From positions 32,001 to 96,000 of IMG/VR virus record IMGVR_UViG_3300010365_001248: DNA of 64,000 nt; one strand, 5' to 3'. The position numbers were made by a program, and so were the translations under genes. Positions 35,548 to 39,154 of this stretch are shown piece by piece (positions within the stretch are counted from its first letter, which is position 1; every line of letters starts with the position of its first letter). The stretch comes from a virus (lineage: Duplodnaviria > Caudoviricetes). Below the pieces are notes generated by a model that saw only the letters and a program-made list of their open reading frames with translations, was not told the DNA's origin and searched no databases.

Positions 35548-35694
35548 TGGATAAATGTCCTTTACAACAAACTTGTTTAATTCAATTAGTTCAAAAAGAA
35601 CACATTAGAAAATTAAATGAGAAATTAAAAGATATGCAAGCTCATATTGAACATTTAAATTTGACGCTTGATTATTTAATAACTAATTATAAAA

Positions 35695-36654
35695 ATGATA
35701 AAAAATAAAAATTTACATAAAGCTAAAAAAGAAAAAAATGATGAATTTTATACTCAACTGGCTGATATTGAAAGAGAATGTTATAAATATAAAGATCTTT
35801 TTCGGGATAAAGTTATTTACTGTAATTGTGATGATGCAAGGGAGAGTAATTTTTTCAGATACTTCTCTATGAATTTCGAGTTCTTTGGTTTGAAAAGACT
35901 TATTACAACTGGGTATAAAGCCAACGGACATGGAGTAGCTTTAATATATGAGGGAGATAAAAATGGAAATAGAGTTGTAGATGATGAGGAAATTCAGGTA
36001 GTCGAGTTAGAAGGTAATGGAGACTTTAGATCACCTGAGTGTATAGAGTTTTTAAAACAAGCTGATATCGTCGTTACCAACCCTCCCTTCTCCCTTTTCC
36101 GTGAATATGTGGGACTACTTATGGAATACAACAAGAAATTCCTAATTATAGGTAACTACAATGCTGTAACTTATAAAGAAATTTTTCCCCTTATAAAAAA
36201 CAATAAAATATGGTTAGGTATTCATTCAAATGTGACTATGGAATTTGCAATGCCTGATAGCTATCAAAAATATGATAGAATAGAAAATGGGGTAAAGATA
36301 GGTAAAGTTCCTTCAATTTGTTGGTTTACAAATTTACCTAACAAGAAACGAACTGAATCTTTGGATTTATATAAAAAGTATAATTCAAAAGAGTATCCGC
36401 AATACGACAATTACGACGCCATTAATGTAAACAAAGTGACTGACATTCCTATGGATTATGATGGTGTGATGGGTGTGCCTATCACTTTTCTGGACAAGTA
36501 TAATCCTAATCAATTTGAAATACTAAGTTCTAATGATTATCGAAAATCAGATTCTGTTCCATTCAAAGCACATGGACTTATAAAAGATAAAGATGGAGCG
36601 ATAAACGGCAAACCCACTTACGCCCGCATCCTCATTCGTCGCTTGATTATTTAA
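35695..36654 (+). CDS. adenine-specific DNA methyltransferase, EcoRI family (copy 1, single chain)
   Basis: KNDEFYT, YCNCDD, GDFRS.EC, catalytic TNPPFSLF and GVPITFLDKYNP. Confidence 0.92.
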   Translation: MIKNKNLHKAKKEKNDEFYTQLADIERECYKYKDLFRDKVIYCNCDDARESNFFRYFSMNFEFFGLKRLITTGYKANGHGVALIYEGDKNGNRVVDDEEIQVVELEGNGDFRSPECIEFLKQADIVVTNPPFSLFREYVGLLMEYNKKFLIIGNYNAVTYKEIFPLIKNNKIWLGIHSNVTMEFAMPDSYQKYDRIENGVKIGKVPSICWFTNLPNKKRTESLDLYKKYNSKEYPQYDNYDAINVNKVTDIPMDYDGVMGVPITFLDKYNPNQFEILSSNDYRKSDSVPFKAHGLIKDKDGAINGKPTYARILIRRLII

Positions 36655-36669
36655 TAACTAATTATAAAA

Positions 36670-37530
36670 ATGATAAAAAATAAAAATTTACATAAAGCTA
36701 AAAAAGAAAAAAATGATGAGTTTTATACTCAACTAGCTGATATTGAAAGAGAATGTTATAAATATAAAGATCTTTTTAAAGATAAAATTATTTATTGTAA
36801 TTGCGATGATGCTAGAGAAAGTAATTTTTTTAAATACTTTTCAATGAATTTTGAATTTTTTGGATTGAAAAAACTCATTACAACTGGATATAAAGCTAAT
36901 GGACATGGAGTAGCTTTTATATATGAAGGAGATAAAAATGGGAATAAAGTTGTAGATGATGAAGAAATACAAGTAATTAATTTAGAAGGAGATGGAGATT
37001 TTAAATCCCCAGAATGTATAGAATTTCTAAAACAAGCGGATATTATTGTAACCAACCCACCCTTTAGCCTTTTCAGGGAGTATGTAGCCTAGTTGATGAA
37101 ATATAATAAGAAATTTTTAATTATAGGATCTCAGAATGCTATTACATATAAAGAAATTTTTTCTTATATTAAAAATAATAAAATGTGGTTAGGAACTCAA
37201 TTAGTAAAAGAATTTATAACTCCATTAAAAACAATTACTGAAAAAACACAATATTGTAATGATCAAGGACAAATTATTCAAAAATTTGGAAATATTTGTT
37301 GGTTTACTAATTTACCTCATAATAAACGAAATGAAAGTATAGATTTATATAAAAAGTATAATAAAAATGATTATCCTACTTATGATAATTATGATGCAAT
37401 TGAAGTAAAAAAAGTTGCTGAAATTCCTATGGATTATGAAGTTGAAAGAATTGTAACAGAAGAGGAATTAAATAAACTTAATAAGTTAGGATTTACTATT
37501 GAAATACTTGAAGAATATGAAAACATATAA
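36670..37530 (+). CDS. EcoRI-family adenine methyltransferase copy 2, large subunit, with in-frame TAG at 37090-37092
   Basis: Co-linear with copy 1 across the TAG (YVA*LMKY vs YVGLLMEY); stops before the GVPITF block. Confidence 0.8.
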
Positions 37531-37726
37531 AATAAAAATTAAAAATCCTGCTATAGGAGTTCCTATTACATTTATGGACAAATATAACCCAGAACAATTT
37601 GAAATCATAGGAATGGGAGAAGATAATGGCATGGGACAATCAGGTGGAGTTTGGTTAGGAGGTTCAAAATCTTGTTTAGTGAATGGGAAAGCTGCATTTA
37701 AGCGTATTTTCATTCGTCATAAATAA
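37517..37726 (+). CDS. methyltransferase C-terminal module A (separate small ORF)
   Basis: MKTYKIKIKNPAIGVPITFMDKYNPEQFEI...RIFIRHK; homologous to the C-terminus of copy 1. Confidence 0.8.
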   Translation: MKTYKIKIKNPAIGVPITFMDKYNPEQFEIIGMGEDNGMGQSGGVWLGGSKSCLVNGKAAFKRIFIRHK

Positions 37727-37742
37727 CTAATAAAATATTATT

Positions 37743-37919
37743 ATGAAAACTTATAAAATAAAGATTAAAAATCCTGTGATGGGTGTGCCTATCACTTTTC
37801 TGGACAAGTATAATCCAGACCAGTTTGAGATCATTAGATTCAGAAAAGGGAATGATGATAAGGACTTGTCAATAAATGGTAAATGTCCATATTTCCGCAT
37901 CCTCATTCGTCGCAAATAA
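37743..37919 (+). CDS. methyltransferase C-terminal module B (58 aa, not in the ORF track)
   Basis: MKTYKIKIKNPVMGVPITFLDKYNPDQFEIIRFRKGNDDKDLSINGKCPYFRILIRRK. Confidence 0.8.
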   Translation: MKTYKIKIKNPVMGVPITFLDKYNPDQFEIIRFRKGNDDKDLSINGKCPYFRILIRRK

Positions 37920-37936: not shown

Positions 37937-38416
37937 ATGAAAATAGAACTAGTAAAAACAAAGATATCAGAGTTATTTAGGGGTTACATAAATACTCAGG
38001 AAGATGGTGTAAAAGGTTATAACGGATTATTAAATATACGCCCACCATATCAGAGAGAATTTGTATATAAAGATAAGCAGAGAGATGCCGTAATAGAAAC
38101 AATAAATAAAGGCTTTCCACTTAATTCGATGTATTGGGTAAGAAATAGTGACGGAACGTTTGAATTACTCGATGGACAGCAAAGGACGTTATCTATTTGT
38201 TCTTACCTTAATGGAGAGTTCAGTATAGATGGAAAAGCTTGGCATAACTTATTTCCAGTAGAGCAGAATAAAATTAACGACTACGAATTAATGGTATATA
38301 TCTGTGAAGGAGATGAGGTAGAGAAGCTTGAATGGTTTAGAACAATTAATATCGCTGGAGAAAAGCTAACGGATCATCGAGAGAGTCATCAAGGAATATT
38401 TGGAGGCATAATCTAA
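37937..38416 (+). pseudogene. DUF262 (ParB/Srx-like) restriction-associated protein, truncated near 38375
   Basis: RPPYQREF, LLDGQQRT, WFRTINIAGEKLT, then an abrupt switch to unrelated sequence; no nuclease domain. Confidence 0.75.
38376..38411 (+). pseudogene. probable C-terminal remnant of host guanylate kinase
   Basis: IERVIKEYLEA* immediately upstream of nadD; gmk-nadD adjacency is typical of Bacteroidales (inference). Confidence 0.4.
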
Positions 38417-38435
38417 TATAAATATCCCGACGCGT

Positions 38436-39020
38436 ATGAAAATTGCACTGTTTTTCGGTTCATTCAATCCAGTCCATATCGGTCACGTCGCTTTGGCGAA
38501 TTATGTGGCTGAGTATGGAAATGTCGACAAGGTGATGATGATAGTGTCACCGTTGAATCCGTTGAAGGCAGGCAATACATTGCTTCCAAACGAAGTGAGA
38601 CTTAATATGCTTCGTAAGGCGGTGGAAGGGTACAGCAAGATTGAGGTTTCAGATGTTGAGTTTGGACTTCCAATTCCGTCGTACACATACGACACTTTGG
38701 AATATTTGAGACGAGAGCATCCTGAGCACGAATATATACTGCTGATGGGAGCCGACAATGTGGAGGTTTTCTCAAAGTGGCGTAACTATGATAAGATTCT
38801 TGAAAAGTATCACGTCATGGTATATCCACGTCGAGGATACACGGATGAACTGCCATATAATAATATGAGTAGAATCGAAACACCGATTATAGAAGTGTCG
38901 TCGACATTCATCAGAGAATCGGTGGAGAAGGGCAGAGACGTGAGGTTCTTTCTGCCTGGAGGCATCTACGACGATGTATGCAGAGAAGTAAGAAAAATGA
39001 AAAAAATTACAATAAAATGA
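38436..39020 (+). CDS. nadD: nicotinate-nucleotide adenylyltransferase (host-derived)
   Basis: FGSFNPVHIGH, SPLNPLK, PSYTYDTL, MGADN and SSTFIR; clearly higher GC than the phage backbone. Confidence 0.95.
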   Translation: MKIALFFGSFNPVHIGHVALANYVAEYGNVDKVMMIVSPLNPLKAGNTLLPNEVRLNMLRKAVEGYSKIEVSDVEFGLPIPSYTYDTLEYLRREHPEHEYILLMGADNVEVFSKWRNYDKILEKYHVMVYPRRGYTDELPYNNMSRIETPIIEVSSTFIRESVEKGRDVRFFLPGGIYDDVCREVRKMKKITIK

Positions 39021-39154
39021 AAGATAGAATTAGTGAACTTCTTGAAGAGGTTTCCAAGCTTTCAGCGGAGAATGCAGAGCAGTTGGAGGCACTTAGAATC
39101 AAGTATTTGAGCAAGAAAGGAGAGATTTCTTCGCTGTTCAATGATTTCAAGAAT
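39017..39154 (+). pseudogene. pheS: N-terminal fragment of host phenylalanyl-tRNA synthetase alpha subunit
   Basis: MKDRISELLEEV...LEALRIKYLSKKGEISSLFNDF coiled-coil; breaks off after about 46 codons. Confidence 0.75.

Follow-up and report, generated by a model that had tools for sequence, protein, structure and literature searches.

A methyltransferase gene of a gut phage ends ahead of its last fold module, and two short genes that follow it each encode that module behind the same leader peptide. We consider it probable that the large product (copy 2) and the two small ones (S1 and S2) form a naturally heteromeric N6-adenine methylase, docked by a zipper of strands and carrying loops that would set its motifs. 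The genes lie in a 64,000-nucleotide stretch, called the window here, taken from a phage genome whose record has 163,912 bases and ∼25% GC. The region from 35.6 to 38.4 kb belongs to a plus-strand gene block, with the following features:

35695-36654, plus strand: copy 1, an unsplit EcoRI-family N6-adenine methylase of 319 aa (PF13651; PADLOC MTase_II)
36634-36669, plus strand: junction of the tandem arrangement, where copy 1 finishes (..ATTCGTCGC) and runs into a repeat of the final codons of the gene upstream (first occurrence at 35659-35694)
36670-37530, plus strand: copy 2, the putative large catalytic subunit, 286 codons, without the last fold module (PF13651 profile 1-292 of 345)
37090-37092, plus strand: in-frame TAG in the large subunit, the sole clearly internal TAG of the plus-strand gene block
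37438-37527, plus strand: tail of the large subunit, an acidic strand-helix-strand (EVERIV / TEEELNKLNKLG / FTIEILEEY), then ENI; kept in 43 clusters
37517-37549, plus strand: MKTYKIKIKNP, the basic leader strand of S1, unchanged across 30 small ORFs
37517-37726, plus strand: S1, 69 aa, with leader, GVPITF helix, QFEII strand, a 29-residue loop of the GMGEDNG type and RIFIR strand (PF13651 279-345)
37743-37919, plus strand: S2, 58 aa, with the same leader and frame elements and an 18-residue loop of the RFRKGNDDKDL type (PF13651 279-345)
37937-38416, plus strand: truncated partner nuclease, the DUF262/GmrSD_N part only, 159 aa compared with ∼375 (PF03235; PADLOC REase_II 1-151 of 372)

The division of the fold is evident from the Pfam profile. 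PF13651 matches copy 1 over positions 1-344 of 345 (E 2.9e-127, 425 bits, with a cut-off of 26.4), and PADLOC assigns copy 1 to MTase_II (PDLC03297). The whole domain (profile 1-345) lies on one polypeptide in copy 1 but not in copy 2, which covers positions 1-292 with 344 bits, while S1 (43 bits) and S2 (49.5 bits) each cover 279-345; the PADLOC profile is likewise divided between the large ORF and the small ORFs. The catalytic NPPF and the N-terminal DEFYT and CNCDD motifs, invariant in family alignments, are present in both copies. What the preliminary description of this locus had read from the letters was confirmed throughout: copy 1 runs unbroken across the junction (...PMDYDGVMGVPITF...), copy 2 ends after PMDY and an extra tail of 30 residues (EVERIVTEEELNKLNKLGFTIEILEEYENI, stop), both small ORFs open with MKTYKIKIKNP, and both keep GVPITF.DKYNP.QFEII and RI.IR around 18-29 central residues that are unrelated. 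At the corresponding site copy 1 has PMDY-DG-VMGVPITF, encoded by GAT TAT GAT GGT GTG, and its loop is of the SSNDYRKSD type. S1 lies in the +1 frame relative to the large gene, and its ATG falls within the last codons of that gene (AATATGAAAAC).

That the tail and the leader form a docking module had been proposed from the letters of the two proteins, with an AlphaFold-type complex prediction as the check. We modelled the L085 large subunit, 93% identical to that of the window (pS 0.256, pN 0.034), together with S1 of the window, and an interface was predicted. The ipSAE values of 0.79, 0.80 and 0.79, compared with 0.07 for the best of three controls, pass a mark that 58 of 80 solved complexes and two of 110 mismatched pairs attain, although halves of one fold tend to score well in complex models. 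A search by sequence returned no solved structure of the PF13651 family, so it is unlikely that a known complex explains the pass. At least 96% of contacts recur between the runs, and the partner has a pLDDT of 82. In the predicted complex, the contacts with the lowest error run from leader residues 4-9 to tail strands 257-262 and 275-280, between which the leader lies antiparallel, and the remainder of S1 packs against core residues 155-174 and 236-249. The pairing of an acidic tail strand with a basic leader strand suggests a contribution of charge. Conservation in each of the two proteins is highest in these elements, the leader in one and the tail in the other.

Natural unsplit proteins bear on the same point. 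In three of them (P0287, P0238 and P0267) the tail-leader module is present as a continuous insertion. P0287, a relative of 408 aa with 47% identity, carries the tail, a 40-residue linker and the leader in one chain, and its AF2 model has a strand at 269-275, a helix at 276-284, a strand at 288-294 and the leader strand at 335-341, i.e. the same pattern as the tail-leader part of the complex model. Taken with the conservation of both elements and the ipSAE result, this supports the docking module. As an idea only, the tail may have arisen by degeneration of a duplicated first half of the C-module; the two can be aligned by MAFFT, but hhalign gives the match a probability of just 12%.

A search for the same split, and for several leader-bearing ORFs, in other Crassvirales had been suggested as a check, and both were found in public metagenomes as large-subunit clusters, small-subunit clusters and arrays. 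A search with the tail region yielded 43 large-subunit clusters (252-310 aa), all of which end in PMDYEVE[KR]IVTEEELNKLKEQGFIIEIIEEY or a close variant; the tail is absent from 46 unsplit homologues as well as from copy 1. Searching with S1 returned many short proteins (58-80 residues) that have its leader and its frame elements, and an exhaustive profile search gave ∼35 clusters of leader-bearing small proteins at 50% identity, the loops of small subunits being about 15-40 residues long. Across 30 aligned small ORFs from other samples the leader is invariant and at least 13 unrelated loop types occur; the conservation of leader and tail goes far past what chance would produce. Array contexts drawn from independent ENA, JGI and Logan assemblies are as follows:

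L085/L086: large gene, then four small genes
L092/L093: large gene, then five small genes
L087, L184: large gene, then two small genes
L091/L094: large gene, then one small gene
L088-L090, L181-L183: large gene, homing endonuclease gene, then one small gene

Usually the gene next after the array encodes a DUF262-HNH nuclease. Within the L092 array, the second type corresponds to S1, the fourth to S2, and the first to the C-module of copy 1. Every small gene in the arrays has its own ATG, its leader and an intact frame. Selection on the small genes was estimated at pS 0.12-0.50 versus pN 0.007-0.066 (pN/pS about 0.03-0.13), including pS 0.365 and pN 0.015 for S1 compared with its L085 counterpart and pS 0.12 and pN 0.007 for S2 compared with the fourth small gene of L092. 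By this measure the small genes are under strong purifying selection; the tail of the large subunit has a pN/pS of 0.30, pooled over pairs. The picture of one core with interchangeable small subunits, put forward from the window alone, thus extends to loci with one, two, four or five small genes per large gene, each of them constrained.

What the variable loop does was approached by structure, by distribution and by covariation with the nuclease. In the AF2 model of copy 1 (pLDDT 89), residues 280-310, the loop, are the sole low-confidence segment of the C-module and lie between two conserved strands. In gamma/class-A methylases the target recognition domain stands at this point of the chain. 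Alignment of the copy 1 model with MmeI, HsdM and M.TaqI extends to residue ∼282, and these enzymes, as described in 10.1101/2023.12.13.571470, continue into or bind their recognition part after the aligned region. A Foldseek search for solved relatives returned nothing at E ≤ 0.001, and VIA-align found generic class-I N6A methylases only, with an HsdM-like core at Z 8.3-8.7.

The loop types are discrete, conserved within a type, and recur on split and unsplit backbones in phages and bacteria. The GMGEDNG type of S1 recurs with 84% identity in an unsplit Firmicutes methylase beside a DUF262-HNH nuclease (L096), and the RFRKGNDDKDL type of S2 is also found in an unsplit methylase (L025). Three kinds of device act on this same loop: silent cassettes in inverted orientation, which begin with the QFEI box and have perfect inverted repeats of 17-18 bp (L002, L004, L078); frame-shifting perfect tetranucleotide repeats between tandem modules, (GACA)x19.5 in L136 and (CAGC)x8.8 in L155; and in-frame tandem modules (L068, L106, L121, L127 and P0172, the last with four). 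Because inversion, repeat slippage and in-frame tandem modules all converge on it, target recognition is the likeliest reading of the loop, and we infer that it is most likely the specificity determinant.

Covariation with the partner nuclease adds a complication. Where an unsplit methylase stands beside a DUF262-HNH nuclease (75-81 loci), nuclease similarity tracks the methylase core (r 0.61-0.62), but it tracks neither the C-terminal loop (partial r 0.02-0.04, not significant) nor the central variable region. The loop is therefore unmatched to the partner nuclease, and this test lends a specificity role no support: the result fits a nuclease whose specificity comes from the methylase and, equally well, a loop that sets no specificity. 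The second branch leads to an alternative that we regard as unlikely, in which the small ORFs bind the core but their loops are without DNA specificity and serve escape from an inhibitor, contact with the nuclease or stability, or in which the small genes are a store of cassettes and only the first one matters. The lack of tracking speaks for loops without specificity, yet discrete types conserved across phyla are typical of recognition domains. A store of cassettes would fit the observations that overlap with the large gene, and hence the look of translational coupling, is confined to the first small gene, and that boxes of near-identical DNA (D3, D6) flank the loops. Against this reading, all the small genes of the arrays have an ATG, an invariant leader and an intact frame and are under purifying selection; the split loci contain no leaderless silent copies, and the silent copies found elsewhere (L002, L004) are inverted and begin at the QFEI box.

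The frame of copy 2 contains the TAG at 37090. The giant minus-strand ORFs of the genome hold 25-46 in-frame TAGs each, compared with essentially none in the plus-strand block, and the genome encodes a tRNA with anticodon CTA (90 nt, with a long variable arm). This tRNA and the dozens of TAG-bearing genes indicate that TAG is read as sense. The preliminary description had translated it as glutamine. Relatives show CAA or CAG where copy 2 has the TAG, and glutamine occupies the position in 38 of the 43 large-subunit clusters, which makes glutamine likely at this site. Given the long variable arm of the tRNA, and mixed residues opposite the TAGs of the TerL fragment in two relatives (T, Q, N, I and F, K, R, Q), it is likely rather than certain. 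The name Crassvirales, used at the outset, is a loose label, given that TerL is just 22-27% identical to that of crAss-like phages. Searches for the giant recoded ORFs in PHROGs and for PF03354 anywhere in the genome gave no match, and the TerL, portal and tail-fibre matches fall solely on other ORFs.

One could also take the split copy in this phage for a decaying relic, with translation halting at the TAG after residue 140, copy 1 alone active and the small ORFs left over. This appears quite improbable to us. The TAG does stand in a block that otherwise uses the standard code, the adjoining nuclease is truncated, and copy 1, apparently acquired later, could take the place of copy 2; moreover, the L087 large subunit is broken near its start, so split loci do decay. 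Against a relic, TAG is sense in dozens of genes of a genome with the matching tRNA, it replaces a Gln codon of the relatives, and copy 2, S1 and S2 show pN/pS of 0.04-0.13 versus relatives and no frameshifts.

The nuclease gene itself breaks off where captured DNA of higher GC content, which carries nadD, begins. Its product matches positions 1-151 of 372 of PADLOC REase_II (PDLC03418) only, whereas that of L085 is full length; full-length nuclease genes follow the small genes in L085, L088 and L184. With a partial nuclease, the window lacks a complete Type II pair, and the phage keeps the methylases without the nuclease. A scan for promoters and terminators stayed at background level. Tandem methylase copies and a cut nuclease mark the locus in the window as rearranged.

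The position of the break has a counterpart in the relatives. In six loci of one lineage (L088-L090, L181-L183) a gene for an HNH homing endonuclease of 185 aa (NUMOD4/HNH_3; PADLOC HEase, E 2.8e-26) sits precisely at the break, after the large gene has stopped and before the small one starts, so that the break coincides with a homing-endonuclease insertion site of relatives. The window has no homing endonuclease gene at the break, where the ORFs overlap. Since the tail-leader module is unbroken in P0287 and P0238, it may predate the break, which may then have hit the last hairpin of an existing mini-domain; in that case the module would not have come in along with the endonuclease.

The overlap of the large ORF with S1, in the +1 frame, might indicate that the halves are joined during expression, by frameshifting, bypass, or splicing of RNA or protein, and that tail and leader are no docking device. 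We find this very hard to sustain: an endonuclease gene separates the halves in the six loci, the second to fifth small genes of arrays could not be joined to the large gene in this way, and tail and leader change as protein, with synonymous changes. An intron was rejected, the 115 nt between PMDY and GVPITF being below the size of group I and group II introns. In a split intein, the N-fragment has ∼100 residues beginning with Cys, Ser or Ala, and the C-fragment ends in His-Asn followed by Cys, Ser or Thr. This candidate was rejected as well: the tail has 30 residues and starts with Glu-Val, and the leader has 11 residues and ends in Asn-Pro, followed by Ala or Val.

Copy 1 records exchange between the unbroken and broken forms. 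Its homology with split large subunits stops at 36461 and that with small-subunit genes starts at 36465, and at the DNA level its C-module shares 97.7% identity with the small genes found in L091, L092 and L094. This mosaic indicates that broken and unbroken alleles share one gene pool and recombine. A direct repeat (D1; 35659-35958 versus 36634-36933, 91% identical) is part of the tandem arrangement; the final four codons and the stop of copy 1 derive from a duplicated piece of the upstream gene, and copy 1 was placed ahead of copy 2 via a short patch of similar sequence. That the arrangement is an assembly artefact stringing together strain variants of one gene, as a metagenome-assembled record with repeats of 91-100% identity between the copies might invite one to suppose, is scarcely credible given that ENA, JGI and Logan assemblies show the same split and arrays with other gene numbers and that copies 1 and 2 meet cleanly within a short similar patch (..CGC), with an open frame and a stop.

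Split methylases, separate specificity subunits, multispecific phage methylases and genes in pieces are each known kinds. In Type I systems HsdM takes its specificity from a separate HsdS, and there are loci with alternative or invertible hsdS genes. The methylase described here resembles them in having a catalytic core, with an HsdM-like fold, and separately encoded, alternative subunits that would set specificity. HsdS, however, has ∼400 residues and two recognition domains outside the catalytic fold, whereas the partners here have 58-75 residues and consist of three strands of the core fold with a loop of 15-40 residues, S1 (69 residues) and S2 (58 residues) matching the C-terminal end of PF13651 only; furthermore, the variants appear to be co-expressed rather than switched.

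Among two-polypeptide enzymes, M.AquI and M.EcoHK31I are C5 methylases with a large and a small polypeptide from adjacent or overlapping genes (PMC3404938); they differ from the present N6-adenine enzyme with several partners in having one fixed partner and, in that article, no dedicated docking tails described. The multispecific C5 methylases of the Bacillus phages SPR, phi3T and rho11s combine one core with several recognition modules and thereby guard against more than one host restriction system (Trautner et al., 1996, as cited in PMC12707154). Those modules stand in tandem inside one polypeptide, unlike the version in the window, which is split into genes; a closer analogue of the C5 enzymes is provided by the bacterial PF13651 proteins with in-frame modules (L106, L121, P0172).

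For the break itself, the nearest parallel is the nrdA gene of phage Aeh1, split by the mobE endonuclease, in which short C- and N-terminal tails rebuild the enzyme and neither RNA nor protein splicing is involved (Crona et al., 2011; PMC3045599). The present case appears to share with it a break at the insertion site of a free-standing homing endonuclease, as judged from the relatives, and short terminal tails that would rebuild the enzyme. They differ in that the window is without the endonuclease, that tail and leader also occur unbroken in P0287 and P0238, and that the small half has been multiplied, for which NrdA offers no counterpart. Within the PF13651 and DUF262-HNH family, copy 1 is an ordinary member, the split genes jointly cover the same profile, and the same nuclease follows the arrays of relatives; ordinary members are single polypeptides, in contrast to copy 2 with S1 and S2. 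We found no published description of a split EcoRI-family methylase, of leader-bearing small subunits, or of a methylase of this family completed through a docking zipper by arrays of tiny alternative subunits.

We propose that the heteromeric enzyme would work as follows. The large subunit would hold the cofactor-binding and catalytic part (DEFYT, CNCDD, NPPF), and a small subunit would supply in trans the last module of the fold, i.e. the GVPITF strand and helix, the QFEII strand, the loop and the RI.IR strand. Its basic leader strand (KTYKIKIK) is predicted to insert antiparallel between the two strands of the acidic tail (EVERIV, helix, FTIEILEE). With a shared leader and a single tail, the small subunits should compete for the core, and the resulting enzymes would form a mixed population distinguished by the loop alone. 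If each loop type sets a different DNA motif, several motifs would be marked and the phage would resist several restriction systems of the family, much as the preliminary description had envisaged. Copy 1 would add a third loop type, so that the phage could make three forms of the enzyme, namely copy 1 itself and the core paired with either S1 or S2. As to origin, the gene would have been broken in the last hairpin of the inserted mini-domain, at the site where relatives carry the HNH gene; the small part, once autonomous, would have multiplied, and loops would have been exchanged with unsplit relatives by recombination in the conserved boxes that flank them.

More tentatively, and at somewhat less than an even chance, the split enzymes may be a plug-in system with a universal zipper, in which each small subunit has its own m6A motif and phage arrays of one to five genes copy the loop types of host restriction-modification systems. 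The break would have been made or exploited by a homing endonuclease, and the same loop would be switched in bacteria by inversion or repeat slippage, which is safe only if the nuclease takes its specificity from the methylase.

If each small subunit does set its own motif, the phage would possess a compact, naturally multispecific adenine methylase, in which one more gene of 200 bp could extend protection to new restriction systems, and the number of leader-bearing genes would serve as a rule for predicting phage methylomes; the enzyme would also be a scaffold for engineering methylases with exchangeable specificity. It would represent a second, independent case of a gene broken at a homing-endonuclease site and rescued by short interaction tails, here with the break becoming an advantage as the detached part multiplies. 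Beyond the phage, comparison with the bacterial loci suggests that in a very common, biochemically unstudied restriction-modification family this loop is the determinant that is hypervariable and can be switched.

The box GTGATGGGTGTGCCTATCAC, which codes for VMGVPIT, has the same sequence in the unsplit methylase gene (copy 1) and in S2, the second small-subunit ORF of the split methylase (window 36466-36485 and 37776-37795 respectively). It forms an imperfect hairpin positioned exactly at the methylase break and recombination point, and could possibly be an endonuclease target or a recombination hot spot. Downstream, within window 37937-39150, a DUF262-HNH nuclease gene breaks off after residue 159, close to GEKLTD. 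On its 3′ side lies a block of ∼40% GC that contains a complete nadD (window 38436-39020) and is apparently host DNA captured by the phage.

Outside the window, two essential genes of the same genome gave partial profile matches near a homing endonuclease gene:

L178:1909-3222, L178:596-1732 and L177:1411-2550, partial TerL and portal matches with a homing endonuclease gene nearby

The TerL match is limited to profile positions 332-726 of 758 and the portal match to positions 49-326 of 827; further essential genes of this phage may also be in pieces. The genome also encodes, outside the window, a TAG-reading tRNA (anticodon CTA; G000:C1:157152-157241) of 90 nt with a long variable arm. This is the usual shape of a Ser, Leu or Tyr tRNA, not of a Gln tRNA.

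Among the relatives with a split methylase, L092 carries a large gene and five small genes flanked by a direct repeat:

L092:993-1178 and L092:2910-3134, direct repeat encoding IGQDS.CFLTDSFQFVK

The fifth small gene continues into this repeat and has lost its RILIR end. This arrangement may identify the array as an inserted cassette. L087 is a case of a split-methylase system in decay: its large subunit (L087:3010-3814) is broken near the start by a deletion and a frameshift, with the CNCDD region gone, and both small genes are intact.

The C-module, the last module of the PF13651 fold, also occurs repeatedly within single chains, as two to four modules in tandem or as an in-frame fusion of two small modules that each carry the leader:

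L068:3627-5024, L106:1885-3219, L121:2065-3558, L127:1960-3501 and proteins P0172, P0176 and P0179, multi-module polypeptides

Two further arrangements concern the variable loop of this module. Three IMG/VR loci carry a silent, partial C-module, tail-to-tail with the methylase gene and 3′ of its stop codon:

L002:4864-5135, L004:4829-5036 and L078:5302-5385, inverted silent C-module pieces

Each comprises an alternative loop type and the RILIR strand, and perfect inverted repeats of 17-18 bp lie at the QFEI codons of both copies. The cassette looks like an invertible switch of the methylase loop, similar to hsdS shufflons. Bacterial genomes (outside the window) show a different layout, in gut Firmicutes whose PF13651 methylase gene is unsplit:

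L136:2881-2958, L155:1148-1182 and L143, tetranucleotide-repeat methylase loci

Here a perfect intragenic repeat, (GACA)x19.5 or (CAGC)x8.8, lies 3′ of a shortened FRKG-type module, and the C-modules beyond it are in different reading frames, apparently a case of slipped-strand phase variation, by which the loop joined to the methylase core would change.
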